From NCBI GenBank assembly GCA_007375595.1, contig VMEP01000001.1:255883-319882 (forward strand): a stretch of 64,000 nucleotides of DNA, in the 5' to 3' direction. Positions 1 through 18,675 of the stretch are shown one piece after another. The notes beneath the pieces were generated by a model. That model had not been told where the DNA came from, searched no databases, and was given only the letters and a program-made list of their open reading frames with translations. The position numbers were made by a program, and so were the translations under genes. Position 1 is the stretch's first letter; each line of letters starts with the position of its first letter. This DNA is from Parcubacteria group bacterium LiPW_30 (GTDB lineage Bacteria; Patescibacteriota; Minisyncoccia; Phycocordibacterales; VMEP01).

Positions 1-450
1 GTTGGATTGAAAGATACAGCAAAGACGACTGTTACCGGAATCGAAATGTTCAATAAGACATTGAACGAAGGTATGGCCGGAGACAACGCAGGTATCCTTA
101 TTCGTGGAATAAAGAAAGAGGAAATTACCCGTGGTCAGGTTTTGGCTAAGCCAGGTTCTGTTACACCTCACACAGACTTCGAAGCAGAAGTTTATATCTT
201 GAAGAAGGAAGAAGGAGGTCGTCACACACCATTCTTCTCAGGTTACAAGCCTCAGTTTTATATTCGTACAACGGATGTGACTGGAGACGTGACCCTTCCA
301 GAAGGTGTTGAAATGGTTATGCCTGGAGACACAATGAAATTCAAAGTGAAGCTCGTTGCTCCAGTTGCCCTTGAGGAAAAACAGCGTTTTGCTATCCGTG
401 AGGGAGGTAAGACTGTTGGTGCAGGCGCAGTAACAAAGATTACGGCATAA
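1..450 (+). CDS. tuf: Elongation factor Tu, C-terminal part (gene starts upstream of window)
   Basis: ORF 7..450 translation matches EF-Tu domains 2-3 (GIEMF...[17 protein letters not shown]); open at window start. Confidence 0.9.
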
Positions 451-550
451 AGACTAGCTATCAGCTTCTAGCTTATAGCTTTTAGAAAATAAGATAGAAT
501 TCTAAATTACTAATGAAGCTAACAAGCTGAAACCTAAAAAGCTAAAAATA

Positions 551-952
551 ATGGCTCAAACAGAATTAAAAACTAAAAAAGTAGTAGAAAAAAAGGTTGC
601 TTCAAAAACACCTCGTGTTTCTAAAGCTTCAGCGAAAGAAGAGGTTATCACCAAACTTCGCATAAGAGTGCGAGCATATGAGAGTAAAATCCTCGATGCT
701 TCAGTGAAACAAATCATTGATACCGCGCTTCGTTATGATGCGAAACTAGTTGGTCCAATTCCACTTCCTACTGAAATAAAGAAGTACACGGTCAACCGCT
801 CGTCATTCGTCTATAAGAATGCGCGAGAGCAATTCGAGATGAGGATTCACAAGCGAGTAATTGATATTCTTAACCCTTCGGCAAAGATTATCGAAGCGCT
901 CACAAACATGAATCTTCCGTCGGGCGTTGATATTGATGTGAAGATGTTATAA
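551..952 (+). CDS. rpsJ: 30S ribosomal protein S10 with N-terminal Lys-rich extension
   Basis: KLRIRVRAYESKILD...GPIPLPT...HKRVIDIL motif set typical of S10. Confidence 0.9.
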   Translation: MAQTELKTKKVVEKKVASKTPRVSKASAKEEVITKLRIRVRAYESKILDASVKQIIDTALRYDAKLVGPIPLPTEIKKYTVNRSSFVYKNAREQFEMRIHKRVIDILNPSAKIIEALTNMNLPSGVDIDVKML

Positions 953-973
953 AAACTGGAAAGCCAGTTTAAA

Positions 974-1006
974 CAAAAAATCCCCAACATCAGGGGATTT
1001 TTTGTT
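974..1006 (+). terminator. Rho-independent terminator after rpsJ
   Basis: aaaaaatccccaacatcaggggattttttgttg: GC stem plus T-run. Confidence 0.6.
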
Positions 1007-1115
1007 GTGTGTGGCTTTGTTTTCCCATACTGTCTCCGCTTTTGCCTTTAAAAACATTGCGTAATTTTTTTGGATCTTCCTAAAATCAAGACTTTTTCTT
1101 CTGAATTTTAATACT

Positions 1116-1212
1116 CCAAAATACCTCCAAAAAACATTGCGCAGTGCGGCGGCACGAGCATAGTAAATTTTCAGCAGAAAATTATACGTGTTTTTAGGAG
1201 GTATTTTAAAAA
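1116..1212. mobile_element. MITE-like small repeat element, short copy; 19-bp imperfect terminal inverted repeats
   Basis: aaaatacctccaaaaaaca ... tgtttttaggaggtatttt (1 mismatch); internal gcgcagtgcg and taaattttcagcagaaaattatacg core shared with the copy at 54941 and others. Confidence 0.6.
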
Positions 1213-1270
1213 AGAGAAATAATGTGTTTTTAGAAGTAAAAGCTAAAAAAAGAAATAATTTACTTATTTG

Positions 1271-1298
1271 TTGCATTTTTTATTGGCTTCTGTATAAT
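1271..1298 (+). promoter_or_regulatory. sigma70-like promoter upstream of rplC (TTGCAT - 16 nt - TGTATAAT)
   Basis: hexamers read directly from sequence; position after terminator and MITE. Confidence 0.4.
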
Positions 1299-1364
1299 CC
1301 CCGTTACTCTTCATTGAGTAGATCTAAGTCCCCGCCAGTTCACGAATTGGCCGTTTCTGGGGAC

Positions 1365-1411
1365 CAATGGACAATCACCCCGCTTTGGTGAAGTCCATTG
1401 CGGTTTTTTTA
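1365..1411 (+). promoter_or_regulatory. Leader hairpin plus U-tract in rplC 5' UTR (candidate attenuator)
   Basis: caatggac...gtccattg 8-bp stem followed by cggttttttt, 40 nt upstream of the rplC ATG. Confidence 0.4.
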
Positions 1412-1450
1412 TTGCAAAAAATGAAATTCCTTTTGGGTATAAAAAAGAAT

Positions 1451-2050
1451 ATGGAACAGTTTTTCTCCGAAGACGGGAGAGCTTTTGCAGTGACTATCGT
1501 TTCTGCAACCCCTCTTACCGTTACGAGAACTAAAACAGCAAAGTCTGATGGTTATTCCGCTGTACAGGTTGGTCACGGAGAAAAACGCGAAAAACTTCTT
1601 TCAAAGGCTGAGTTAGGTCAGAGAAAAGGTTTTGCTAATTTTCGTAAATTGAAAGAATTCAGAATGCCAGAAGAAAAACTTGGTGAATACAAGGCTGGCG
1701 ATATGCTTGATGTTTCTCAGTTTGAAGTCGGCGATAAGATTGCCGTCTCCGGTGTTTCAAAAGGAAAAGGATTCCAAGGAGTTGTGAAGCGTCACGGATT
1801 TCACGGAGGACGCCGTTCTCACGGACAAAAGCACTCAGAGCGTGAACCAGGTGCTATTGGTGGTTCTGGTGGTCGCGCTGGAGGTCGTGTTGCAAAAGGT
1901 ATCCGTATGGCTGGTAGAATGGGTTCTGACCGTGTTACGGTTAAAAACCTTATGGTTGCCGCTATTGATAAAGAGAACAACACAATTTTAATTAAGGGAG
2001 CTCTTCCAGGGAAACCAGGAACACTTCTTGAAATTAGAAAAATTTCATAA
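1451..2050 (+). CDS. rplC: 50S ribosomal protein L3
   Basis: Translation from ATG 1451 (MEQFFSEDGRAFAVTIVSATPLTV...); upstream part of ORF 1367 overlaps the leader hairpin, so the shorter start is preferred. Confidence 0.85.
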   Translation: MEQFFSEDGRAFAVTIVSATPLTVTRTKTAKSDGYSAVQVGHGEKREKLLSKAELGQRKGFANFRKLKEFRMPEEKLGEYKAGDMLDVSQFEVGDKIAVSGVSKGKGFQGVVKRHGFHGGRRSHGQKHSEREPGAIGGSGGRAGGRVAKGIRMAGRMGSDRVTVKNLMVAAIDKENNTILIKGALPGKPGTLLEIRKIS

Positions 2051-2055
2051 AAATC

Positions 2056-2796
2056 ATGGAAAAGTCTAAAACACAAAAGAATAAGGTAGCTACGGCTAAA
2101 GAAAGCGTTAAGAAAGTACGCCCTCTAGTTGATATGAACGCAAAGGTCTACAACCAAGACGGGAAAGATGCTGGCACAGTCGAACTTCCAAAGACTGTTT
2201 TTGATGTTAAGTGGAATGATGATTTGGTTCATCAGGTTATGCTTTCAATGCAGTCTAACGCTCGCGCTGGTACAGCTCACACTAAAAACAGAGGAGATGT
2301 ACGCGGAGGTGGTAAGAAACCTTGGGCACAGAAAGGAACCGGTCGCGCACGACACGGCTCTTCAAGAAGCCCTATTTGGCGTGGTGGTGGTGTGACATTT
2401 GGTCCACGTGCTGAGAAAAACTATGATCGTAAGATAAACAAGAAGATGAAGGTTAAGGCGCTTTACACTGTTTTGTCGAGGAAATTTAGAGATGGTGAAA
2501 TTCTTTTTGTTGATACATTTAAACTAGCTTCTCCAAAAACAAAAGAAGCAAAAGTTATTTTTGAAAAAATAGTAGCAGGAGCAAAGCTCACAAAGACAAC
2601 AATGAAGAAGCGAAATACTGCATATCTTGCACTTGGAGCAAAAGATGTTCAGGTAGAAAAGAGTTTCCGCAATCTTCCAAATCTTGAGACAGGTAATGTT
2701 CGCGATTTGAACCTACTTTCTTTACTTAATCACCGTTACATTATAATTTCCGAACCAAAAGAAAGTATTTCGTTTTTGTCGGCAAAGATTAAATAA
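2056..2796 (+). CDS. rplD: 50S ribosomal protein L4
   Basis: Operon position and L4-like sequence (GTGRARHGS...). Confidence 0.85.
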   Translation: MEKSKTQKNKVATAKESVKKVRPLVDMNAKVYNQDGKDAGTVELPKTVFDVKWNDDLVHQVMLSMQSNARAGTAHTKNRGDVRGGGKKPWAQKGTGRARHGSSRSPIWRGGGVTFGPRAEKNYDRKINKKMKVKALYTVLSRKFRDGEILFVDTFKLASPKTKEAKVIFEKIVAGAKLTKTTMKKRNTAYLALGAKDVQVEKSFRNLPNLETGNVRDLNLLSLLNHRYIIISEPKESISFLSAKIK

Positions 2797-2801
2797 AATA
2801 T

Positions 2802-3158
2802 ATGGCACGAACAGCAAAAAAAGAAGAAGTTAAAGGAATCGCAGTTAAGGCGAGAGTCCAGCCTGTTGCTAAGCAGGCGAAAAATACTGGTGCATATACC
2901 CTTGTTCGCCCACACATCACAGAGAAAGCATCTTTCCTTACTTCTTCAAACGTATATACACTTGTGGTTCCAGTTGAAATGAATAAAAAAGAAATTTCAA
3001 AAGTTGTTGAGAAATTATACAAAGTTAAATCCGTTAAAATCACAACAGCTCCTATTAAGAAGAAGAATATTTTCAATCGCGGAAAGTGGGGCACAAAAGG
3101 AGGTGGGAAAAAAGCTTATGTGTTTTTGAAAAAGGGCGATTCAATTGATTTTGCATAA
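2802..3158 (+). CDS. rplW: 50S ribosomal protein L23
   Basis: Operon position, size, L23-like core. Confidence 0.8.
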   Translation: MARTAKKEEVKGIAVKARVQPVAKQAKNTGAYTLVRPHITEKASFLTSSNVYTLVVPVEMNKKEISKVVEKLYKVKSVKITTAPIKKKNIFNRGKWGTKGGGKKAYVFLKKGDSIDFA

Positions 3159-3168
3159 TTAAACTATT

Positions 3169-4011
3169 ATGAAAACCTACAAACCAACATCACCATCAAG
3201 AAGAAGCATGACAGGCGTAGTATATCGCAATGTTATCACCCATACAGAGCCATTAAAAGCTCTTACCAAGGGTCGCAAGCGAGATAGTGGACGCAACTCT
3301 GCTGGACGCATTACCACTCGCCATAAAGGAGGTGGGCACAAAAGACTCTATCGTGATATAGATTTTAAATATAATAAATTTGATATTCCAGCAAAGATTG
3401 CGAGCGTTGAATACGATCCAAACCGCACTGGTTTTATAGGTCTCGCTGTTTATAAAGACGGAGAGAAGCGTTATGTGCTTTTACCTAAATCTGTTGGAGT
3501 AGGTAACTCTTTTATCGTTAGTGAAACTGCATCGATAACCCCAGGAAATCGCATGCCACTCAAACAAGTTCCTGTTGGTACTTTTGTTTACAACGTTGAA
3601 CTAAAACCAAAGGGTGGTTCAAAAATTGCGCGCGGGGCTGGTGTTTATGTGGAAGTTGTTGCAAACAACGACGGTTACACGCACTTAAAAATGCCATCTA
3701 CAGAAGTTCGAAAAGTTTCTGATAAATGTTACGCATGTATCGGGCAGGTTTCAAACGAAGAACACGGACTTGTAAAAATAGGAAAAGCAGGACGTTCTCG
3801 ATGGATGGGTATTCGCCCAACAGTTCGTGGAACAGCTATGAACCCTGTTGATCACCCACACGGTGGAGGTGAAGGACGCCAAGGACGCGGTCTTCGACGT
3901 GCAAAGAGCAAGTGGGGCAAGCCAACAGGCAAGGGCCAAAAGACACGCGCACCTAAAAAATATTCAAACGTCTTTATTGTTTCAAGACGTAAAGTTGGAA
4001 AGAAACGATAA
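3169..4011 (+). CDS. rplB: 50S ribosomal protein L2
   Basis: Hallmark GRNSAGRITTRHKGGGHKRLYR and C-terminal Gly/Arg-rich tail. Confidence 0.95.
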   Translation: MKTYKPTSPSRRSMTGVVYRNVITHTEPLKALTKGRKRDSGRNSAGRITTRHKGGGHKRLYRDIDFKYNKFDIPAKIASVEYDPNRTGFIGLAVYKDGEKRYVLLPKSVGVGNSFIVSETASITPGNRMPLKQVPVGTFVYNVELKPKGGSKIARGAGVYVEVVANNDGYTHLKMPSTEVRKVSDKCYACIGQVSNEEHGLVKIGKAGRSRWMGIRPTVRGTAMNPVDHPHGGGEGRQGRGLRRAKSKWGKPTGKGQKTRAPKKYSNVFIVSRRKVGKKR

Positions 4012-4027
4012 TAATATAGCTATAAAC

Positions 4028-4060
4028 AAAAAATCTCGTCACATGGCGAGATTTTTTATT
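4028..4060 (+). terminator. Terminator directly after rplB
   Basis: aaaaaatctcgtcacatggcgagattttttatt. Confidence 0.5.
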
Positions 4061-4062
4061 AC

Positions 4063-4145
4063 GAGTTTACTTTTATCTTTACGGGTATAGTATTTCTCTT
4101 AGTTTACTTCTTTAATTTTTTGGCGGAGGAATCATGTCAAGAGAA
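4063..4145 (+). repeat. Direct repeat copy 1 (~80 bp leader: promoter-like TATAGTAT, RBS GGAGGAA, ATG-TCA-AGA)
   Basis: Near-identical to 5081..5162; each precedes a different small ORF starting MSR. Confidence 0.8.
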
Positions 4146-4550
4146 TCAGATGGCATCCTTTTTTCAGCAGTGTGCGGACATTGCGGCGAGTGTTGGGATG
4201 ATCATGAAAATCCGTATCAGTATGGTTGGACGGAAGACATGATGAAACAACGTCAGCCTGGCTTTAAAAAGTCGCTTTATGATTGCCCGGGGTTTCAGGT
4301 CAGAAAGATTGATTTGCCAGACATCATACTTGTTTCTGCAAGACGATTGTTTTTTGGAGAACCCCAATTACCTGTTTTTTGGAAATATCCCGGAATCAAG
4401 TCTGCCGCCGAGCACTGCTTGAAACAAAATCAAGCGAAGTGGGATTCGGCCGAAAGGAAACAGCGGTGGTCAATGTATAGTGACTGTGTGGTCCTTATTG
4501 GCGTTAACCCCAAGACAGGAACATCTGTCGTTGTTGATTGTGGTAGCTGA
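4134..4550 (+). CDS. Hypothetical protein, CxxCxxC N-terminus, GC-rich cassette gene
   Basis: ORF with RBS in duplicated leader; ~50% GC against ~38% background. Confidence 0.45.
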   Translation: MSRESDGILFSAVCGHCGECWDDHENPYQYGWTEDMMKQRQPGFKKSLYDCPGFQVRKIDLPDIILVSARRLFFGEPQLPVFWKYPGIKSAAEHCLKQNQAKWDSAERKQRWSMYSDCVVLIGVNPKTGTSVVVDCGS

Positions 4551-4610
4551 TAAGCCAATTATTGTGTACAAGGTCAGATTTCCGGACGAGTAGTTCGTCG
4601 GTGTAAGATA

Positions 4611-4650
4611 ATCGGCGCAGGGTTCTCACCCCGCGCCGATTTTTATTTTA
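4611..4650 (+). terminator. Rho-independent terminator
   Basis: atcggcgc...gcgccgat stem followed by ttttatttt. Confidence 0.6.
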
Positions 4651-4722
4651 CCAAAGGAAACTTACTTGGTCGTTTACAATTTTTTCAAGATTGCGTAGTA
4701 TCACACATAGAGGGAAAGTTCG

Positions 4723-5016
4723 ATGTTTTCTTACTGGGGGATTTCACCAGTGGACGACAAATTTAAACTGTTTCATGAGATTTCTCGGTTTTTACGTACC
4801 GCCCCACAGCCTGCAGTGATTGCGTGGAGAGAAGGGTGGAGCAAAATTACCCTACATCCCGACGGGTTTGAGTCGTGGGATTCGTGTGGGTGTTGTACAA
4901 CTGGATACTCTCCGGGGTGGTATTGCGAAAATCCCAAGGGGTCTTACCGTTGGATCTGTGGTCCCAAAGGAGAGAGCGTCAAAGGAAAAGCCCCAGAAGG
5001 ACTTTGTTGTTTGTGA
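4723..5016 (+). CDS. Hypothetical Cys-rich small protein
   Basis: RBS GAGGGAAAG before ATG; overlapping alternative frame 4820..5032 cannot be excluded. Confidence 0.35.
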   Translation: MFSYWGISPVDDKFKLFHEISRFLRTAPQPAVIAWREGWSKITLHPDGFESWDSCGCCTTGYSPGWYCENPKGSYRWICGPKGESVKGKAPEGLCCL

Positions 5017-5040
5017 AAACCTGGGTGACTAAAATAAAAA

Positions 5041-5074
5041 CCTGCAAAACCATCTCGGTCCTGCAGGTTTTTCT
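5041..5074 (+). terminator. Rho-independent terminator
   Basis: cctgca...tgcagg stem then tttttc. Confidence 0.55.
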
Positions 5075-5080
5075 GTTATG

Positions 5081-5162
5081 GGTTTACTTTTATTCCTGCT
5101 GGTATAGTATTTCTCTTAGTTTACTTCTTTAATTTTTGGCGGAGGAATCATGTCAAGACTGA
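5081..5162 (+). repeat. Direct repeat copy 2 of the cassette leader
   Basis: Matches 4063..4145 with few substitutions. Confidence 0.8.
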
Positions 5163-5398
5163 GAATTACAAGCGCCCGGGTGCTTGCGAAGATTGCTGGT
5201 CCAGAATGTGGAATTCATTGTCAGGTCAGAATCACTGCACCACTCAACAGTGTTTTTCAGGGAATTACTGCACCAAGTCTCTGGTTGGCAGAAGTGAGCA
5301 GACTTTTCCCCGAAATTCCAGAAAACCATCTTTCCATGGCGCCTGACGATAGTTTCGCTGTGCTCGCGGACCGTATCGCCGAGTACTTGAATCGCTGA
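5150..5398 (+). CDS. Hypothetical small protein (second MSR... cassette gene)
   Basis: Same leader/RBS as 4134 ORF, terminator downstream. Confidence 0.4.
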   Translation: MSRLRITSARVLAKIAGPECGIHCQVRITAPLNSVFQGITAPSLWLAEVSRLFPEIPENHLSMAPDDSFAVLADRIAEYLNR

Positions 5399-5425
5399 CG
5401 AATAACTTCGCCAGAAGAATGAAAG

Positions 5426-5456
5426 AAGCCCTGCGCATGCGCAGGGCTTTGTTTGT
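5426..5456 (+). terminator. Rho-independent terminator
   Basis: agccctgcgcatgcgcagggct followed by ttgtttg. Confidence 0.6.
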
Positions 5457-5741
5457 AGGTGGCCCCGCCGATCGGGGCAGACCTCCTGGTATCTCGTCTG
5501 ATCTAGCTCTCCTTGCTTGGCCGTGCAAGTATGATGCCTGTCGTTTTGACGAGCGGACAACGCCCACCGGAGTGGCGTATTCCAGGGTGAGGGACATGAT
5601 TACAACGACTTGCCTCCTTTACTCATATCCTAAGTCCGATTAGGGAGCAGCATACATCGAGGGGAATATGTGGGCGGGGCGCCCGACGACCCCAAGATTA
5701 GTCACCAAGTCCTTTTTCGATATTATCTGGTTTAGTCTGGT

Positions 5742-5769
5742 TTGACAATGGTTTTTCTTCTGATAATAT
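5742..5769 (+). promoter_or_regulatory. sigma70-like promoter re-starting the r-protein operon (TTGACA - 16 nt - TG-n-TAATAT)
   Basis: Consensus hexamers read directly, 60 nt upstream of rpsS. Confidence 0.5.
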
Positions 5770-5831
5770 GCACGACAAGCTCACTTGGGCTGTTTTTGTT
5801 TGTTTTTCATTAATTATACTAATTACTACAA

Positions 5832-6176
5832 ATGACCAGGTCACTAAAAAAAGGACCATACGTTGATCCACGCCTTCTAAAAAAGATAGAAGGTAAAAAA
5901 CCACTTGAAGCTGGGGTTATTAAGACTTGGTCACGACCATGCCAAATTTCTCCGGAGATGGTTGGTTTTACTTTTGGTGTACATAATGGAAAGAGCCATA
6001 TTGAAGTTTTGGTTACAGAAGATATGGTTGGACATCGCCTAGGTGAATTTTCTCCAACAAAGAAATTCGTAAGACACGGAGGTAAAATGCAGAAAGAGCT
6101 TGAACAGAAGAAGAAACAAGCGGAAATTTCTGCCGCACAGTCTGCTAAGGCAACCGCCGGTGATAAAAAGAAATAA
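5832..6176 (+). CDS. rpsS: 30S ribosomal protein S19 with Lys/Ala-rich C-terminal extension
   Basis: SLKKGPYVD...TWSR...VHNGK core. Confidence 0.9.
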
Positions 6177-6181
6177 AAAAT

Positions 6182-6604
6182 ATGAAAGCTGCACTTACAA
6201 ATTATCGCCAATCACCAAGAAAGGTTAGACTCGTAACTGATTTGGTAAAAGGAAAAAGCGTTGAGCAGGCAATTGCGTTGCTTACTTTTTCTGGGAAAAG
6301 AGCAGGAGACCCAATCCAAAAGCTAATCCGTTCAGCAATAGCAAATGCTAAAACTAACAACAAAGCTGAGGGTGAACTTTTCATAAAAGAATTTCGTGTT
6401 GACGAAGGGGTAACTCTTAAGCGTTCAATGCCTCGCGCTCGTGGTTCGGCTTTTCCAATTAAGAAACGCCAGAGCCATATTTTATTGGTTCTCGGGGAGC
6501 GAGGAGTTGTAGAGCCAAAAGAGGCAAAGAAGACCACCGCTTCAGTTAAAAAAACAGAGAAATCTGAAAAAAGTATTACTAAGAAGCTAAAAGCTAAAAG
6601 CTAA
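6182..6604 (+). CDS. rplV: 50S ribosomal protein L22
   Basis: Operon position; ARGSAFPIKKRQSHI-like L22 motif. Confidence 0.9.
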   Translation: MKAALTNYRQSPRKVRLVTDLVKGKSVEQAIALLTFSGKRAGDPIQKLIRSAIANAKTNNKAEGELFIKEFRVDEGVTLKRSMPRARGSAFPIKKRQSHILLVLGERGVVEPKEAKKTTASVKKTEKSEKSITKKLKAKS

Positions 6605-6618
6605 AAGCTGTTATTATC

Positions 6619-7299
6619 ATGACTCACGTTGTCCATCCATACGCACATAGAATAGGAATTTTAAGAGACTGGAAGTCTCGCTGGTTCGCAACGCTAGGTG
6701 GGAAATACAGTACCCTTTTACGTGGAGATGTTTTACTACGCGAGTATCTTGAAAAGAAACTCCGTGGTTTTTATATTGATTCTATTGATATTGAAAGAAG
6801 TCCAAAAACATTGCGTTTAAATATTAGAACATCACGTCCAGGAATGGTTATCGGCAGAAGCGGGGAAGGTTCAACTCGTTTACGAAACGATATAGTTGCT
6901 TTCATGAGAAAGAACAAGCTTGAAACTCCTGGTGAGCTAAAAATTGATATTGAAGAGGTTTCGTCTCCGGAAACAAGCGCAGCTATTGTTTCTTATATGG
7001 TTGCTGAAGCTCTTGAAAAACGCCTACCATTCCGCCGTGTTTTGAAACAGACAGTTGAAAAGGTTATGGCAAACCGCGATGTGAAAGGTGTTAAGGTTGC
7101 TTTGTCCGGTCGCTTAGGTGGAGCTGATATGGCAAGACGAGAGCACTTGAAGAGAGGCGGAATTCCACTTCAGACAATGCGCGCTGATATCGATTTTTAT
7201 CGAGAAAAAGCCCATCTTCCATATGGTGATATCGGTATTAAAGTTTGGATTTATAAAGGCGAAATTTTTGCTAAGGATAAGGATCAGGAGAAAAAATAA
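6619..7299 (+). CDS. rpsC: 30S ribosomal protein S3
   Basis: HPYAHRIGI...KH domain...GRLGGADMAR. Confidence 0.95.
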   Translation: MTHVVHPYAHRIGILRDWKSRWFATLGGKYSTLLRGDVLLREYLEKKLRGFYIDSIDIERSPKTLRLNIRTSRPGMVIGRSGEGSTRLRNDIVAFMRKNKLETPGELKIDIEEVSSPETSAAIVSYMVAEALEKRLPFRRVLKQTVEKVMANRDVKGVKVALSGRLGGADMARREHLKRGGIPLQTMRADIDFYREKAHLPYGDIGIKVWIYKGEIFAKDKDQEKK

Positions 7300-7311
7300 C
7301 CCAATAAATTT

Positions 7312-7740
7312 ATGTTATTCCCTAAAAAAGTTAAATACCGAAAGTGGCAGACAACTAGAAAGAATCCTGCTAAGTTAAAGGTGGAGACACGTGGTCTTTC
7401 TCTTTCGTATGGAGCTTTTGGGTTAAAGGCCCAGACCGAGGCTCGTGTAGATAGTAAGCAGATCGAAGCGGCAAGACGCGCAATGTCACGCGCCCTTGGT
7501 AAAACTGGCCGTATTTGGATCCGTATCTTCCCCGACCGCCCAGTTACCGCAAAGGCGGCTGAAGTTCCTATGGGTAAAGGAAAAGGAGACCCAAAGGGGT
7601 ATTGTTTCCAGGTTAAACCAGGAAGGATTTTGTTTGAGGTTGATGGTGTAGTAGAATCAGTCGCGCGCGAGGCCCTACGTAAGGGTGGTACAAAACTTCC
7701 ACTTAAGACAAAGTTTATGAGTCGCGCTGGAATGTTTTAA
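7312..7740 (+). CDS. rplP: 50S ribosomal protein L16
   Basis: MLFPKKVKYRK...RMGKGKG. Confidence 0.95.
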   Translation: MLFPKKVKYRKWQTTRKNPAKLKVETRGLSLSYGAFGLKAQTEARVDSKQIEAARRAMSRALGKTGRIWIRIFPDRPVTAKAAEVPMGKGKGDPKGYCFQVKPGRILFEVDGVVESVAREALRKGGTKLPLKTKFMSRAGMF

Positions 7741-7750
7741 TTATATTTTT

Positions 7751-7948
7751 ATGAAAGATTTAAAAACAAAAAAAGACGAAGACCTAAAGAAACTTCTTGT
7801 TGAGAAACAAGATGCTTTGAGAGCTTTTCGCCTCGGTCTTTCTGGAAGTAAGATTAAGAATGTAAAAGAAGGAGCAGAGATAAAAAAAGATATCGCGCGC
7901 ATCATGACCGAAGTTTCAAGTCGCCGAATTGCAGTTATCGCCAAATAA
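7751..7948 (+). CDS. rpmC: 50S ribosomal protein L29
   Basis: Size and position between L16 and S17; [10 protein letters not shown]-like. Confidence 0.8.
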
Positions 7949-7956
7949 ATATTTAT

Positions 7957-8211
7957 ATGACAAAAGCTACTGAACAAAAGAATAAGAAAGTACTAAAGGG
8001 GAAAGTTGTCTCTGATAAAATGGGTAAGACTGTGGTTGTTCTTATTGAGCGATATGTAAAGCACCCTAAGTATGGTAAGTTTATGAACCTAACAAAGCGT
8101 TACAAGGCACATGATGAGACAAACGCCTTCAAGGTTGGAGATGTGGTCGAAATAGAAGAAACTAGACCTATGTCTAAGGATAAGTGTTTCGTGGTCCGCA
8201 CAACAAAATAA
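7957..8211 (+). CDS. rpsQ: 30S ribosomal protein S17
   Basis: [14 protein letters not shown]...KRYKAHDE. Confidence 0.9.
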
Positions 8212-8215
8212 TTTT

Positions 8216-8584
8216 ATGATACAAGATGGCACAGTAGTAAAAGTTACAGATAACTCCGGAGCAAAAATCGGAAAGGTTTTCAAAGTGCTCGGTGGTTCAA
8301 AGAGACGATACGCGCAAATCGGAGATCTTGTTGTACTTTCAATCAAGATTGCAGAACCACGTAAGGCAACAAAGAAAAAAGATGTTGTTAAGGGTGTTGT
8401 TGTTCGCCAGCGAAAGCCTTTCAAGCGTAAGGATGGTTCTTATATTTCTTTTGATGACACAGCCGTTGTTCTTGTTGACGATAAGGGAGAGCCAAAGGCA
8501 GGACGTGTTTTCGGACCAATTCCTCGAGAGATTGGGGAGCGTGGTTATCAGAAGATTGTTTCGCTTGCGCCTGAGGTTATATAG
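8216..8584 (+). CDS. rplN: 50S ribosomal protein L14
   Basis: MIQ..T...V.DNSGAK. Confidence 0.95.
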   Translation: MIQDGTVVKVTDNSGAKIGKVFKVLGGSKRRYAQIGDLVVLSIKIAEPRKATKKKDVVKGVVVRQRKPFKRKDGSYISFDDTAVVLVDDKGEPKAGRVFGPIPREIGERGYQKIVSLAPEVI

Positions 8585-8590
8585 AAAAAT

Positions 8591-8896
8591 ATGAAAATCA
8601 AAAAAGGAGACAATATAATAATCATTGCCGGTAAGGATCGCGGCAAAAAAGGAAAGGTTGTTAAGGCCATGCCTAAAGACGGTAAAGTTATCGTCGAAGG
8701 TTTAAATATGGTTAAACGCCACAAGAAGGCTCGCAAGGCGGGAACAAAAGGACAGACTGTTTCTGTTGCTATGCCAATCAACGTTTCAAACGTTATGATT
8801 ATTGATCCAAAGGATGGAACACAGACACGCGTTGGGAAGAAACTTTCTGGTGGAAGATTTGTTCGTATAGCAAAGAAGAGCGGAAGTGAAATATAA
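8591..8896 (+). CDS. rplX: 50S ribosomal protein L24
   Basis: KIKKGD.V.IIAGKDRGK KOW motif. Confidence 0.9.
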   Translation: MKIKKGDNIIIIAGKDRGKKGKVVKAMPKDGKVIVEGLNMVKRHKKARKAGTKGQTVSVAMPINVSNVMIIDPKDGTQTRVGKKLSGGRFVRIAKKSGSEI

Positions 8897-9449
8897 AAAC
8901 ATGAAAATAAAAACGACAAAAGAAAAAGAAATAGAAGCCTATAGCAAACTAAAGGAGGAATTTGGCTATAAGAATAAAATGGCTGCACCAAAACTTTCTA
9001 AAGTTGTTATTTCTGTTGGTGTCGGTAATCTTTTGAAAAAAGACAGAACTAAAGGGGATTTCGTAAACGGCAGACTCGGCAAGATAGCTGGACAGAAATC
9101 AGTTGCTCGTGGGGCAAAAAAGGCTATTGCAACCTTTAAATCTAGACAAGGCGACATTATCGGCTACATGGTTACACTTCGTGGAGCACGCATGTACTCT
9201 TTCCTTGAAAAACTTTTCAATGTTGCGCTTCCTCGCACTAAAGACTTTCGTGGTATAAACCGGACCGCTGTTGATGAAATGGGTAATCTTACGATTGGTA
9301 TTAAAGAGCACACAATTTTCCCAGAAACAGCCGATGAAGAACTAAAAGATGTTTTTGGAATGGCTATAACACTTGTTAGTACCGCAAAAAGCAAGAAGGA
9401 AGGAATGGCTTTTTACGAATTACTCGGAACTCCGTTTAAGAGAAAGTAG
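8886..9449 (+). CDS. rplE: 50S ribosomal protein L5
   Basis: L5 core (DFRGI...YSFLEKL...). Confidence 0.95.
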   Translation: MKYKNMKIKTTKEKEIEAYSKLKEEFGYKNKMAAPKLSKVVISVGVGNLLKKDRTKGDFVNGRLGKIAGQKSVARGAKKAIATFKSRQGDIIGYMVTLRGARMYSFLEKLFNVALPRTKDFRGINRTAVDEMGNLTIGIKEHTIFPETADEELKDVFGMAITLVSTAKSKKEGMAFYELLGTPFKRK

Positions 9450-9472
9450 AATATTTTTACCTAAAAACAAAA

Positions 9473-9506
9473 AACCCTCTCTGTTTACAGAGAGGGTTTT
9501 TTGTTG
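9473..9506 (+). terminator. Rho-independent terminator after rplE
   Basis: aaccctctctgtttacagagagggttttttgttg. Confidence 0.65.
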
Positions 9507-9595
9507 ACAGATAAAAGCTAAGGAGTAGTCTTTTAAATAGATGTATGTAGTACGGCGTTTCAATCAAAATCGTTTCTATACAAAAGAGGTGTGCC

Positions 9596-10048
9596 ATGGC
9601 AAAGAAGGTGGTGTCAGAAGGAGTGTTGGCGGCAAGGGCAAATGAGGCCGCCAGGAGAAAGTGCAGAAAGAGCCTGATCGCGTGGAGCGCTCACCCGATT
9701 TCGAAGGAGTCATTCCCCGATGACTTCGCGGATGGGTTTGATTTCGCCGACCGGGCTGGTTCAGGGGCTTTTGAAGCTTTCGCCGGTCGGCTTGAGACGA
9801 ATCTCGCCTCAGCGCCGTGTGCTCAGTGTTCAAAGGATTGTCCCGGTTCACACGGGGAATGTCTCCTCGATGTTGACCCTGGGGCACTTCAGGACCAGGA
9901 AGATCTCGCAGTCGAGGAGGCCGAAATGAGCCCCTTCGTGTTGGCTGCGAGGCGTGCTGGTTTCGACCATGATACCGCCTTGCGCATGGAGGCCGAAATG
10001 GAAATTGAGATGAGTCGTCTTTCTGGGGAAATGGACAGCATCCATTAG
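9596..10048 (+). CDS. Hypothetical acidic protein, GC-rich (~58%) cassette gene inserted between rplE and rpsZ
   Basis: RBS AAGAGG then ATG; own terminator downstream; compositional outlier. Confidence 0.4.
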   Translation: MAKKVVSEGVLAARANEAARRKCRKSLIAWSAHPISKESFPDDFADGFDFADRAGSGAFEAFAGRLETNLASAPCAQCSKDCPGSHGECLLDVDPGALQDQEDLAVEEAEMSPFVLAARRAGFDHDTALRMEAEMEIEMSRLSGEMDSIH

Positions 10049-10093
10049 GCAGACCTCTGTCAAAATTGGTTGTTCGCTCTTCGGAGACGTTTA

Positions 10094-10129
10094 CGCCCCG
10101 ACACGATGTTTGTGTTCGGGGCGTTTTCT
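10094..10129 (+). terminator. Rho-independent terminator
   Basis: cgccccgacacgatgtttgtgttcggggcg followed by ttttct. Confidence 0.6.
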
Positions 10130-10148
10130 ATTGTTAGTTTGTGCCAGT

Positions 10149-10176
10149 TTGACATTAAAGGGCGTTTTGGTAGTAT
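10149..10176 (+). promoter_or_regulatory. sigma70-like promoter (TTGACA - 16 nt - TAGTAT) reading toward rpsZ
   Basis: Hexamers read directly. Confidence 0.45.
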
Positions 10177-10353
10177 ATGCGGGAGCTCATTTGAGCCAGT
10201 TTTTTGGGAAACTATCCGTTCTGATCCGTTTTTCTCCTTTAGGGCTTCGGCATTAAAGAATAAAAACGAGACATCGAAAGGGAAAGTCCCGAATTTAAAT
10301 TATTCCGACGAACGATTAACGTGCTGTCGGAATAAAAAGAAAACTTTTTATTT

Positions 10354-10539
10354 ATGGCAAAAACATCAACTAGAGTTCGCGCGTTAAAGACGCCAAAATT
10401 CAGCACACGAAAAGTAAATCGTTGTTTTCGTTGTGGACGTAAGCGTGCTTTCATGCGTGATTTCGGTCTTTGTCGTATTTGTTTCCGTGAATTAGCCAAC
10501 GATGGAAAATTGCCTGGCATTAAGAAATCATCCTGGTAA
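10354..10539 (+). CDS. rpsZ: 30S ribosomal protein S14 type Z (zinc-binding, 61 aa)
   Basis: CFRCGR...CRIC zinc ribbon, typical short S14. Confidence 0.9.
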
Positions 10540-10547
10540 AAAATATT

Positions 10548-10943
10548 ATGACCACTGACCCTATTGCAGACATGTTAATTCGTATAAAGAATGGTAGTAA
10601 AGCCAAAAAGGAAACGGTGCTTATTCCTTATTCACAGTTACGGTTTTCTATCGCTCAAATCCTACTTCGTGAAGGATATCTTTCATCTGTTACAAAGAGA
10701 CTACGAAAGGCATCTCGATTACTTGAGGTTGGTTTGATTTATGATGGAAACGGAACACCAAAAGTCACAGACGTAGAGCGTGTTTCGAAATCATCAAAGC
10801 GTATTTATGCCGGCGTTCGTGATGTTCGTCCCGTTAAATACGGTTACGGTATTATGGTTCTTTCAACTCCAAAAGGTCTTTTGACTGGAGATGAGGCGCG
10901 AAAAGAACATGTCGGAGGAGAAGTAATGTTTAAAATCTGGTAA
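10548..10943 (+). CDS. rpsH: 30S ribosomal protein S8
   Basis: MTTDPIADMLIRIKN. Confidence 0.95.
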   Translation: MTTDPIADMLIRIKNGSKAKKETVLIPYSQLRFSIAQILLREGYLSSVTKRLRKASRLLEVGLIYDGNGTPKVTDVERVSKSSKRIYAGVRDVRPVKYGYGIMVLSTPKGLLTGDEARKEHVGGEVMFKIW

Positions 10944-15924: not shown

Positions 15925-18675
15925 ATGGTTTTAAACTTTAACGGAGAAAGTCATGAAAAATTTGTAAATCCCGAAGAGGAGATTAATTTTTTGCGTGAAC
16001 GTCTTGCAGAAAAGGAAAAAGAAGCCTCGTTTGGTAAAGAATCGGCGCCAGTTAATCATGAAAAAGAGGTTATTAGGGAATATTCGGAAAAGCCAGCTCG
16101 GGAAATTTTGCATCACGAAAAGGTGCTGGGGGAACAAGAGGTAGAGCGTATCGTTCTTGATTTGAAGCCAGAAGAGCACGATAAACAAATGGAGGAGCTT
16201 CTAGGACTTCTTATTGAAAAAGGTGCTCGTAACACTATTTCAGTTGTGGAGAAGATGGATAATCCCCACATAACTGACGACTTTCACAGAATACTTGTTC
16301 AATATGTTAAAAGCGTAGGAAAAGTTCCAGACTTAGAAAAAGATAAACAAGTTTGGAAGGCGGTACATATGCGTCTTTATGAAATCCTTCTTCCAGAAGG
16401 AGACGCAGAAAAGCAGGCAAAAAGCTTTAAAGAAATTGTTACGATAATGGAACAGTTTTACGCTGGGATGCTTTCTGTTTCCGATGGTCGAGATAATTTT
16501 CCAGGGAAGAATTATTTTACGCTTGAGATAGCTTTGTCTAATCAAAGCAGTGAAATAGTTTTTTACGCTTCTGTTCCTGATGATAAGAGTGGTTTGTTGG
16601 AAAAACAGTTACTCGGTTTATATAAAGACGCTCGAATTAGGGAGGTAAAGGATGATTATAATATTTTTAACGAAAAGGGAGCATCTTTGGGCGCCTACGG
16701 AGCTTTCACAAAAAGTCAGGTCTATCCAATAAAAACATATGCAGATTTTGAACATGATCCACTTCCGGTAATTCTTAACGTTTTTTCTAAACTTAAAAAT
16801 AAAGGAGAGGGGGCGGCAATTCAATTTTCAGTTTCTCCTGTTGGTGATTATTTCTTGAAAAGATACGGAAGAGTGCTTGACGATTTAAAACGAGGAGTGC
16901 CAAAAGATGAAGCAACAAATATTTCGCCAACTGTCGGACAAGAGGTGGGGAGGTTTGCCAAGGAACTCATTATGGGTGTTTCTGTGCCTAAAAAAATTGA
17001 TGGGAAAGAGGTTATTGATGAAGACGCGGTAAAATATGTTTCGGAAAAAATTAGTAGCACTATTGTTAATACAAACATTCGAGTAATTGCTTCCGCAGAG
17101 ACAACCTTGCGCGCTGAAGAAATTTTAGGTGAACTACAATCGGCTTTTAATCAATTCACAGATACTAAAGGAAATGGTGTTGAGTTTAAGTCGTTAAAAC
17201 GCCACGACCTGTTGAAGCTTTTTCAAGAATTTTCTTATAGGCTATTTTCTCAAGATCATTCTTTGCCGCTCAACCTAAAAGAACTTACCACAATGTTCCA
17301 TTTTCCAGAGCAGGTTTCGTCGGCGCCACAACTAAAACAAGCCCGTTCCACGACAGCGCCTGCACCGCTTGATGCTCCAACCTACGGGACACTTCTTGGA
17401 ATAAATAAACACCGTGGAGAAAATAAGGAAATTTTTATTACCGACGAAGATCGAATGCGTCACTTTTATGTTGTCGGACAAACAGGCACTGGTAAGACCG
17501 CAATCATGAAGAACATGATTATTCAGAATATTAAAGCTGGGCACGGGGTGTGCATGATAGACCCACACGGAACCGATATTGAGGATATTTTAGGAAATAT
17601 TCCACCTGAGAGAGAAAAAGACGTTATTTATTTTGACCCAGCTTACACAGAAAGAGTGATGGGTTTGAACATGCTGGAGTATGACCAAACTCGACCAGAG
17701 CGGAAAACTTTCGTGGTTAACGAGTTGATTTCGATTTTTAATAAATTATTTGATATGAAAGTTGCTGGCGGACCAGCATTTGAACAGTACTTCAGAAACT
17801 CTGCTCTTTTGGTTATGGAACACCCAGAATCTGGCAGCACTCTTCTTGAAATTGTGCGTGTTTTGGCTGACAAATCTTTTCGTGACATGAAATTGTCTTA
17901 TTGTAAGAATCCAGTGATTACGCAGTTTTGGCAAAACGCGATTAAGACAAGCGGGGAGCAGTCGCTCGCCAACTTTGTCCCTTATATCTCAAGCAAATTT
18001 GATCCATTTTTATCAAACGATATTATGCGTCCAGTTATTGCTCAAGAAAAATCATCATTTAATTTTAGGCAAATAATGGATGAGAAAAAAATACTCTTGG
18101 TTAATTTGTCTAAAGGGAGGTTGGGAGATTTAAACGCCAATTTAATAGGGCTTATCTTGGTTGGCAAGATTCTTATTGCCGCGCTTTCTCGTGTTGATAT
18201 TGTTGGCGGAAAACCTGCTGATTTTTATTTATACATTGATGAGTTCCAAAATATAACCACTGACTCAATTTCCACAATCCTTTCAGAAGCGCGAAAATAC
18301 AGATTATCTCTAAATGTTGCCCATCAATTTATTAAACAACTTGATGAAAAAACAAAGAACGCTATTTTCGGCAACGTTGGTTCAATGGCGGTGTTTCGTG
18401 TTGGTAGTGAGGATGCAGAATTTTTAGAGAAACAACTTGCGCCAGTTTTTTCTGCAAGAGATATTATGAATTTGGACAATTATAACGCTTACGTGAAAAT
18501 GCTTATGAATGGTCAACCAGCCAGAGCTTTTAACATTGAAACGATTTCGCCAAGGAAGGGGGACGTAAATACCGCTACAAGAATTAAAGAGGCGTCTTAC
18601 CAAAAATACGGAACCCCCCGTGTAGAAATTGAGGAGCATATCGCTCAAAAGTATCGCCAAACAGGAACAGTTTAG
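15925..18675 (+). CDS. Large soluble P-loop ATPase: C-terminal VirD4/TraD/TrwB-like (type IV coupling protein family) domain with an uncharacterised ~480-aa N-terminal region
   Basis: Walker A GQTGTGKT, Walker B LYIDEF, downstream RKYR...NVAHQFIKQL resembling the T4CP R..QS..QL motif; no TM segments. Confidence 0.5.
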   Translation: MVLNFNGESHEKFVNPEEEINFLRERLAEKEKEASFGKESAPVNHEKEVIREYSEKPAREILHHEKVLGEQEVERIVLDLKPEEHDKQMEELLGLLIEKGARNTISVVEKMDNPHITDDFHRILVQYVKSVGKVPDLEKDKQVWKAVHMRLYEILLPEGDAEKQAKSFKEIVTIMEQFYAGMLSVSDGRDNFPGKNYFTLEIALSNQSSEIVFYASVPDDKSGLLEKQLLGLYKDARIREVKDDYNIFNEKGASLGAYGAFTKSQVYPIKTYADFEHDPLPVILNVFSKLKNKGEGAAIQFSVSPVGDYFLKRYGRVLDDLKRGVPKDEATNISPTVGQEVGRFAKELIMGVSVPKKIDGKEVIDEDAVKYVSEKISSTIVNTNIRVIASAETTLRAEEILGELQSAFNQFTDTKGNGVEFKSLKRHDLLKLFQEFSYRLFSQDHSLPLNLKELTTMFHFPEQVSSAPQLKQARSTTAPAPLDAPTYGTLLGINKHRGENKEIFITDEDRMRHFYVVGQTGTGKTAIMKNMIIQNIKAGHGVCMIDPHGTDIEDILGNIPPEREKDVIYFDPAYTERVMGLNMLEYDQTRPERKTFVVNELISIFNKLFDMKVAGGPAFEQYFRNSALLVMEHPESGSTLLEIVRVLADKSFRDMKLSYCKNPVITQFWQNAIKTSGEQSLANFVPYISSKFDPFLSNDIMRPVIAQEKSSFNFRQIMDEKKILLVNLSKGRLGDLNANLIGLILVGKILIAALSRVDIVGGKPADFYLYIDEFQNITTDSISTILSEARKYRLSLNVAHQFIKQLDEKTKNAIFGNVGSMAVFRVGSEDAEFLEKQLAPVFSARDIMNLDNYNAYVKMLMNGQPARAFNIETISPRKGDVNTATRIKEASYQKYGTPRVEIEEHIAQKYRQTGTV

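Follow-up and report, generated by a model that had tools for sequence, protein, structure and literature searches.

The adjacency of rplB and rpsS is among the most conserved in bacteria. The S10-spc-alpha cluster of ribosomal protein genes has known internal promoters and leaders—the Escherichia coli S10 leader with its L4-controlled attenuator, for example, and the internal promoters of Bacillus. Phage 'morons', a concept associated with Hendrix and Juhala, are reportedly additional transcription units found between phage genes that are themselves conserved. Integron cassettes are promoterless, bounded by attC sites, and located next to an integrase. Long GC-rich intergenic regions (GC-IGRs) of AT-rich genomes, finally, yield candidates for structured non-coding RNAs (ncRNAs), as in the searches of the Breaker laboratory (PMC8632094, PMC11109978). 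We describe here a locus that invites comparison with all of these: the rplB–rpsS junction of Parcubacteria group bacterium LiPW_30, a tiny groundwater organism, analyzed within a 64-kb window (64,000 nucleotides of contig VMEP01000001.1; all coordinates are those of this window). Between rplB (3169–4011) and rpsS (5832–6176) lies a gap of 1820 bp (4012–5831) that contains four predicted intrinsic terminators, two near-identical leaders, three small open reading frames (ORFs), a strong promoter for rpsS, and a GC-rich stretch without a conserved ORF. A literature search found nothing on rplB–rpsS insertions in bacteria of the candidate phyla radiation (CPR).

We think it likely that internal 'restart' promoters opened a permissive slot at this position, and that the slot was then filled with a minus-strand RNA gene and with individually swapped protein-coding cassettes. 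In a clade of the Parcubacteria, the S10-spc cluster would carry internal promoters of one consensus type—an extended −10 element with a short hairpin and U-tract immediately behind it—of which the one before rpsS would be clade-wide, and another, in this genome, would precede rpsN. The slot would be permissive to foreign DNA because the essential genes downstream no longer depend on read-through, and the few bases between rplB and the restart promoter could thereby have become a collecting place. In this genus, the slot would hold a conserved RNA gene of ∼290 nt, transcribed away from rpsS and ending at a bidirectional terminator, T4, together with one to three monocistronic protein genes in the orientation of the operon, each with a promoter, a strong Shine–Dalgarno (SD) sequence, an ORF and a terminator. 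Recombination between 90-bp leader repeats would remove or add ORF1 and ORF2 together, and breaks at the T-tracts that follow the terminators would remove or add single cassettes.

The part of this scheme that concerns the slot comes from a survey of 80 metagenomic relatives fetched via RplB (individual contigs are cited below by L numbers). Of 33 relatives with 65–75% RplB identity, 32 have 66–2067 bp between rplB and rpsS; one of these, L044 (70%), is counted in the long-gap group by gap length, its upstream sequence not matching the restart module. More distant relatives (52–63% identity) have the canonical gap of −16 to +66 bp, other than L092 (63%), with a long gap of 799 bp. The cargo of the slot is unrelated from lineage to lineage: a prokaryotic diacylglycerol kinase (DAGK), an N6-adenine methyltransferase fragment, DUF3298 membrane proteins, orphan ORFs, and GC-rich DNA free of ORFs. 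The sole sequence common to the slots is their last 60–70 bp, which consist of TTGAC(A/T)-17-TAnTAT, a hairpin with co-varying stem sequences (AGCUCguuaGGAGCU, GGCUCacagGAGAGCC, CCCGCugaGCGGG and others), and a U-tract. The smallest gaps, of 66–76 bp, hold this promoter-and-hairpin module and nothing else, and therefore the operon was probably split by an internal promoter first, and acquired its cargo later. This order of events is at odds with the preliminary description of the DNA, made from the sequence of this genome by itself, in which a single module had colonized the operon. Comparison of synteny among the relatives upholds the accessory nature of the cargo but not its travel as a whole: the cargo is a piecewise mosaic, and its constant part is the RNA region.

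In the window, the restart promoter of rpsS is TTGACA-16-TGaTAATAT (5742–5769, plus strand), invariant in all close relatives. Some 2–3 nt past its predicted start begins a leader hairpin, AGCUC-ACUU-GGGCU (5778–5791), followed by a U-rich tract that extends to 5808; at least 20 relatives retain the hairpin, with variation in the sequence of its stem. This element, 5778–5808, could be an attenuator or a 5′-terminal stabilizing stem-loop. Like the known leaders of the S10-spc-alpha cluster, the module places a promoter and then a terminator-like hairpin before a block of ribosomal protein genes, and is conserved within a clade; unlike them, it occurs at rplB|rpsS and rplE|rpsN, its leader is very short, and it has no similarity to the ribosomal-protein leaders in Rfam. 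In its position and its repetition, it is a clade-specific variant of the known internal promoters. An autoregulatory ribosomal-protein leader lies between the promoter and the first gene that it regulates, and binds a protein encoded downstream. The 5778–5791 hairpin has that position; the GC-rich RNA does not, for it lies upstream of the rpsS promoter and is best read on the opposite strand.

Two further observations concern what relatives carry at this spot. In L046 (4843–6911) and L049 (4843–6789), the slot contains ∼2 kb of AT-rich DNA with minus-strand ORFs, among them an N6-adenine methyltransferase-like fragment (NPPY/NPSY motif) that is apparently split or decaying. In L011 (739–838; JGI 3300009285), an insertion of ∼125 bp resembling a miniature inverted-repeat transposable element (MITE) sits exactly at the start codon of rpsS, equivalent to position 5832 of the window, with 14-nt terminal inverted repeats, ATCCCGTTAGAGGT...ACCTCTAACGGGAT, and an ATG on both sides. 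It is by its appearance a second kind of mobile DNA that uses the same spot.

Within the gap, the order of elements is T1, leader 1, ORF1, T2, a promoter-like TTTACA-17-TAGTAT, ORF2, T3, leader 2, ORF3 and T4, followed by ∼270 bp of DNA of 56% GC, the restart promoter, its hairpin and U-tract, and rpsS. An assembly artefact is excluded, because at least six samples, assembled independently, show the same arrangement. Much of this anatomy had been recognized in the preliminary description, and correctly so: the split of the junction by ∼1.8 kb (rplB ends at 4011, rpsS begins at 5832); a terminator after rplB and three more, all of which we find, with T-tracts; duplicated leaders bearing GGAGGAA and ATG TCA AGA, given as ∼80 bp and by our comparison ∼90 bp each; and a TTGACA-16-TGnTAATAT promoter at 5742–5769, a type we now see across the clade. 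The claimed deviation in base composition is real but was overstated. It was given as ∼50% against ∼38% GC, whereas the insert has 45.3% GC and the 64-kb window 39.9%; ∼50% is reached only in ORF2 and ORF3, and 56% in the RNA region. GC content at third codon positions (GC3) is 0.43–0.46 in the ORFs of the gap, versus 0.30 in rplB and rpsS. The idea that the insert is accessory, compositionally deviant DNA built of self-contained transcription units thus gains support.

T1, directly behind rplB (4025–4060, plus strand), is an inverted repeat with a 13-bp stem and a T6 tail (−15.1 kcal/mol), conserved in L001, L006, L010 and L016. T2 (4610–4651, plus strand; −23.5 kcal/mol for 4610–4641) and T3 (5036–5078, plus strand; −19.3 kcal/mol for 5036–5072) are inverted repeats with T-tracts, and would terminate the ORF1 and ORF2 cassettes, respectively. 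T4 (5426–5449) is a perfect palindrome, AAGCCCTGCGCA/TGCGCAGGGCTT, flanked by T-rich sequence on both strands (−20.4 kcal/mol on the plus strand, −18.7 on the minus strand), and is predicted to be bidirectional, serving the last cassette in one direction and the RNA in the other. It accompanies the RNA region always; in L014 it follows directly after ORF2.

Leader copy 1 (4052–4142, plus strand) comprises a promoter-like TTTACT...TATAGTAT, the SD sequence GGAGGAA, and codons 1–3 of ORF1; copy 2 (5069–5158, plus strand), before ORF3, is a direct repeat of it. Identity is 87% between 4052–4120 and 5069–5137, and 94% between 4112–4142 and 5128–5158, and the repeat spans GGAGGAA and ATGTCAAGA. Its cores, of 27 and 18 nt, each occur exactly twice in the window, where 0–0.05 occurrences are expected by chance. 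An octamer, GTTTACTT, is present twice in each leader (4065–4072 and 4103–4110; 5082–5089 and 5120–5127), the copies being 38 bp apart and on either side of the −10-like TATAGTAT; it may be the binding site of a regulator.

T4 and the GC-rich stretch are present in every relative, whichever cassettes it carries. This stretch is most likely a gene for a structured RNA, encoded on the minus strand, that forms the conserved core of the slot. The candidate is ∼290 nt long (5420–5715, minus strand), and consists of a 5′ domain (5712–5592), a variable middle (∼5580–5498), a 3′ hairpin (5486–5457), and T4. A promoter-like site on the same strand, TTGTCA-17-TAATAT (5720–5748), has a −35 element that overlaps that of the rpsS promoter by five of six bases. 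It is found in all lineages; L006 (with TAACAT) and L014 retain both of its hexamers and the spacing of 17 nt. The conserved structure starts ∼4 nt past the predicted minus-strand start; at the other end, T4 is followed on this strand by a U-rich tail, UUUUUU in most relatives.

Two nearly invariant blocks flank the hypervariable middle. Mean column identity is 95% in 5580–5715 across lineages in which synonymous divergence (dS) of rplB reaches 0.71, a conservation greater than that of the cassette genes and of the synonymous sites of rplB. Hairpin stems are kept while their loops vary in length (CCCC-loop-GGGG, with loops of 3–9 nt), and one hairpin has been cleanly deleted in L010. Compensatory changes convert CCUAA/UUAGG to CCCAA/UUGGG, GGGC/GCCC to GGCC/GGCC, and ACGCC/GGCGU to ACGG/CCGU. 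In a 38-pair model of the 5′ domain, which includes three compensatory pairs, 98.7% of cells are paired on the minus strand; taken on the plus strand, these helices reach 93.0%, because six variable positions read A-C there and G-U on the minus strand. Slid controls gave 31–48%, and two of 500 shuffles reached the observed value. The fold z-score of the window's own sequence over the stretch is −2.6 on the minus strand and −0.85 on the plus strand.

That the stretch contains no convincing ORF, as had been noted before, is confirmed. In L006, L001 and L014 the plus-strand frame is interrupted, and the ORF on the minus strand shows a ratio of nonsynonymous to synonymous substitution rates (dN/dS) above 1 and frame-breaking indels, and so we reject a coding role on both strands. 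None of the 4227 families in Rfam, which include RNase P, SRP, 6S, tmRNA, ribosomal-protein leaders and riboswitches, matches 5420–5715 at the gathering threshold, and at E ≤ 10 there are only terminator-like chance hits, far below it. Motifs that suggest the signal recognition particle or RNase P to the eye (AAGUCCG, AGCAGC) were discarded; they come down to a simple covarying hairpin, CCUAA-GUCCGA-UUAGG, with no backing from Rfam. Among GTDB species genomes, just two contain a 23-nt conserved core of the RNA, and none of the IMG/VR contigs does. With a covariance model of the 5′ domain, no diverged copy came up in the loci of 68 relatives or elsewhere in the window, and the RNA has no complementarity of 12 nt or more to the rest of the window. 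Like the ncRNA candidates of GC-IGRs, the stretch is long (∼300 bp), GC-rich (56% versus 40%), free of ORFs and conserved, with hairpins of variable loop and compensatory changes; unlike the families described from such regions, it matches nothing in Rfam and is known from the two species only. It would thus belong to no described family, and is a good candidate for a new one. 6S RNA is a rod-like hairpin with its 5′ and 3′ ends paired and a large central bubble; the folds predicted here branch several times around a 5′ domain that is self-contained, and the variable middle gives no consistent fold. Our best guess is a small RNA that acts in trans or forms a ribonucleoprotein, its promoter competing with that of rpsS.

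Most helices are strand-symmetric, and this raises the alternative that the stretch acts on the plus strand, instead, as the 3′ untranslated region or a read-through element of the last cassette, or as a long regulatory leader of rpsS that binds, for example, a ribosomal protein. Its place directly upstream of a ribosomal operon would suit such a role, as would the minimum free energies (MFEs), which are lower for the plus strand in four of six lineages (L006, L010, L014 and L016). The plus side is boxed in, however, between T4, a strong terminator that precedes the stretch and leaves no room for a promoter, and the conserved rpsS promoter downstream of it. L010 and L016 carry uncompensated changes that break the sole helix specific to the plus strand (GGGUGAGGGA/UCCUUUACUC), and pairing is, as mentioned, the poorer on this strand. 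We consider a plus-strand role unlikely, and favor the minus strand because pairing is better there, and because that strand has a predicted promoter and terminator of its own.

A more ambitious version of the minus-strand RNA gene deserves mention, as a long shot: a functional RNA of a new class, linked to the supply of ribosomes, in which a reciprocal promoter switch, an RNA acting on the ribosome, and clade-specific attenuation modules all come together. If this were so, the shared −35 element would let RNA polymerase hold only one of the two promoters at a time, and the output of the RNA and of the ∼20 downstream ribosomal protein genes would be reciprocally coupled. The RNA, highly structured and with an exposed AAAGGAGG, would act on ribosomes or ribosomal proteins, and the hairpin-and-U-tract restart modules would be a clade-specific form of attenuation that replaces the classical S10/spc feedback leaders.

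ORF1, ORF2 and ORF3 are real genes under purifying selection, with dN/dS ratios of 0.05–0.34, compared with more than 1 for the minus-strand ORF that overlaps the GC-rich stretch. ORF1 (4134–4550, plus strand; 138 amino acids (aa); dN/dS 0.08) encodes a putative zinc-binding (CCHC) protein, and matches exactly a hypothetical protein recorded for LiPW_30. Its orphan family is rare: among 1.84 billion cluster representatives, profile searching turned up only 10 members. Residues C14, C17, D22, H24, C51 and W103 are invariant in the family, and point to a likely CCHC zinc site. A match of yeast RQT4 to the family profile (E = 0.0012) was rejected, as a compositional match involving a CxHCG motif and a charged helix. 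ORF2 (4750–5016, plus strand; dN/dS 0.05–0.10) is preceded by the promoter-like TTTACA-17-TAGTAT (4673–4701, plus strand), which is conserved in L006. Its product, Cys-rich in the C-terminal half, has 88 aa if translation starts at GTG 4750, or 97 aa if at ATG 4723; the former is probably correct, because homologues are 88 aa long. ORF3 (5150–5398, plus strand; 82 aa; dN/dS 0.24–0.34) belongs to no known family, and its cysteines, once listed among its features, are not conserved. Word-indexed searches returned only two or three close relatives for each ORF, two each for ORF2 and ORF3. Neither ORF2 nor ORF3 matches an entry in the PDB or has viral relatives, and none of the three, nor ORF4 described below, has a match in Pfam, PHROGs, PADLOC or NCBIfam. 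As for the proteins, we would guess at niche or accessory factors that the cell can dispense with, one of which, that of ORF1, would bind zinc.

Turnover of the cassettes is evident among close strains, which are 97–98% identical in the flanking ribosomal genes. The material comprises ∼20 contigs from groundwater metagenomes and two metagenome-assembled genomes, found by exact-protein and homologue look-ups, and includes the combinations 1+2+3, 1+3, 2+3, 3 only, and 2 only. The window and L006 have all three ORFs. L001, L002 and L003 lack exactly 4652–5067, the ORF2 cassette, and are otherwise 97–98% identical. L016 is without the ORF1 cassette, the junction lying at the T-tracts of T1 and T2. 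In L010, L012 and L013, ORF3 is the sole cassette; in L014, ORF3 is absent, and ORF2 is joined straight to T4. L017 has a single leader and ORF3 only, the leader-to-leader segment containing ORF1 and ORF2 being missing and the junction being the 90-bp leader itself. This state fits recombination between the two leader copies; Campbell-type integration via the leader would equally create the duplication. The other junctions are in T-tracts after terminators, with overlaps of 9–11 bp. Each ORF can thus be regarded as an independent cassette of predicted promoter, ORF and terminator. A homologue of ORF1, P0003 (64% identical), lies in an unrelated locus, L009, where the upstream region differs and the terminator hairpin is homologous to T2; ORF1 and its terminator therefore move as a unit. 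Distant members of the ORF1 family are mostly on contigs too short for gene context to be informative.

In these respects the cassettes resemble phage morons. They are, as far as sequence can predict, promoter–ORF–terminator units of deviant composition, at least one of which moves with its terminator; they sit between genes that are adjacent in relatives (gap −16 to +66 bp); and they come and go among close relatives. They differ in being located in a chromosomal ribosomal protein cluster, with no phage genes or homologues found. Integron cassette arrays are likewise ordered sets of small genes, individually gained and lost at one chromosomal site. Here, however, each unit has a predicted promoter and terminator, and junctions fall at T-tracts or the 90-bp repeat. 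There is no integrase nearby—the neighbors are rplB and rpsS—and the inverted repeats are terminators with GC stems and T tails.

Such comparisons bring up the possibility that the insert is what is left of a mobile element or prophage (phage DNA bearing morons, an integron-like array, or the cargo of a MITE), now decaying and with no present function. GC and GC3 values foreign to the host, cassette-like organization, and the MITE-like element at the same spot in L011 are all in keeping with this. Decay, on the other hand, sits badly with purifying selection on all of the ORFs and with an RNA region better conserved than the synonymous sites of rplB. The insert is not bounded by an integrase, a transposase, attC-like sites or terminal repeats (for attC core motifs, no formal search was made). 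Nor does its DNA match phages, plasmids or IMG/VR, and an origin from phage or plasmid, for which neither DNA nor protein similarity was found, was dropped. We consider a functionless remnant very unlikely.

Hardly credible at all is a toxin–antitoxin-like or secreted-peptide module, the organization first proposed, in which functionally coupled small genes travel as one unit: the genes are small and adjacent, ORF2 is Cys-rich, and P0003 lies between HicA/NikA-like and MazE/PemK genes in a toxin–antitoxin-rich locus, but a type II pair is disfavored because T2, T3 and separate promoter-like sites divide the ORFs into single units instead of one co-transcribed pair, because partners are not obligate (near-identical strains have ORF3 only, ORF2 only, 1+3 or 2+3), and because the database searches above returned no toxin or antitoxin family, while no signal-like hydrophobic segment is visible at the N-terminus of ORF1–3, by inspection only, no predictor having been run. 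What survives of the preliminary description is its accessory, self-contained units and the restart promoter; it erred on the organization of the genes, and overlooked the ORF-free stretch as a conserved element.

Several considerations weigh against the account that we prefer, of a slot opened by restart promoters and filled with an RNA gene and cassettes. The argument for a permissive slot is correlative, drawn from a comparison of relatives. All promoters, terminators and the strand of the RNA are predictions, and we infer the transcription of each unit, the causal role of the slot, and any function. The promoter-like site of the leaders has a non-canonical 15-nt spacer and was not called by the promoter scanner. 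For the RNA, independent lineages number only ∼4–6; all three fully compensatory pairs sit in L014, and to these are added several switches between G-U and Watson–Crick pairs; the 38-pair structure was derived from the same sequences on which it was scored; MFE by strand is mixed, as already mentioned; and the variable middle yielded no consistent fold. Finally, when positions 1–10600 of the window are compared with L001, L017 and L016, blocks with zero differences alternate with blocks of 5–15% divergence across the ribosomal cluster, a pattern that indicates frequent homologous recombination within the population. Because this mosaic recombination spans the whole locus, identity of cassettes between strains says nothing specific about their mobility. 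The identity of ORF1 between the window and L001 belongs to this locus-wide pattern, and was dropped as a sign of recent cassette transfer.

A second site in the window has the same architecture, between rplE and rpsN (9466–10204, plus strand), where a second GC-rich insertion occupies the region 9450–10355: a terminator (−27.8 kcal/mol), ORF4, another terminator, a restart promoter, a hairpin, and U6. ORF4 (9596–10048, plus strand; 57% GC; dN/dS 0.2) encodes 150 aa of no family. The promoter, TTGACA-16-TGgTAGTAT (10149–10176, plus strand), begins a module that extends to 10204 with AGCUCAUUUGAGCC and U6; the hairpin motif at 10184–10204 matches the type found in the rpsS leader, and the module thus occurs once more in the window. 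Between this module and rpsN is an unexplained leader of ∼150 nt, and the non-coding parts of the rplE–rpsN site are poorly conserved in comparison with L006, unlike those of the rplB–rpsS site. Elsewhere in the cluster, rpsJ and rplC, normally adjacent, are separated by 414 bp of AT-rich DNA (953–1366; 35% GC), also present in L001 and L006 (∼10% diverged from L006), which may be a third break. Directly after secY-adk-map, normally followed by infA-rpmJ-rpsM, is a gene for a 916-aa HerA/TraG/VirD4-like ATPase (15925–18675).

Unless we are mistaken in the causal role of the slot, a whole lineage of the ultra-small CPR bacteria has opened both rplB–rpsS and rplE–rpsN by way of internal restart promoters, and the gap now serves as a landing pad for accessory DNA. 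The arrangement is unusual but explicable, and overturns no principle. It bears on annotation and binning, for which the synteny of ribosomal proteins serves as a phylogenetic marker block. For gene discovery, it offers a new structured RNA candidate and a rare family of putative zinc-binding proteins without detectable fold relatives. And it bears on genome flexibility: reduced genomes of this kind, of ∼0.7 Mb, would still keep a flexible gene content.

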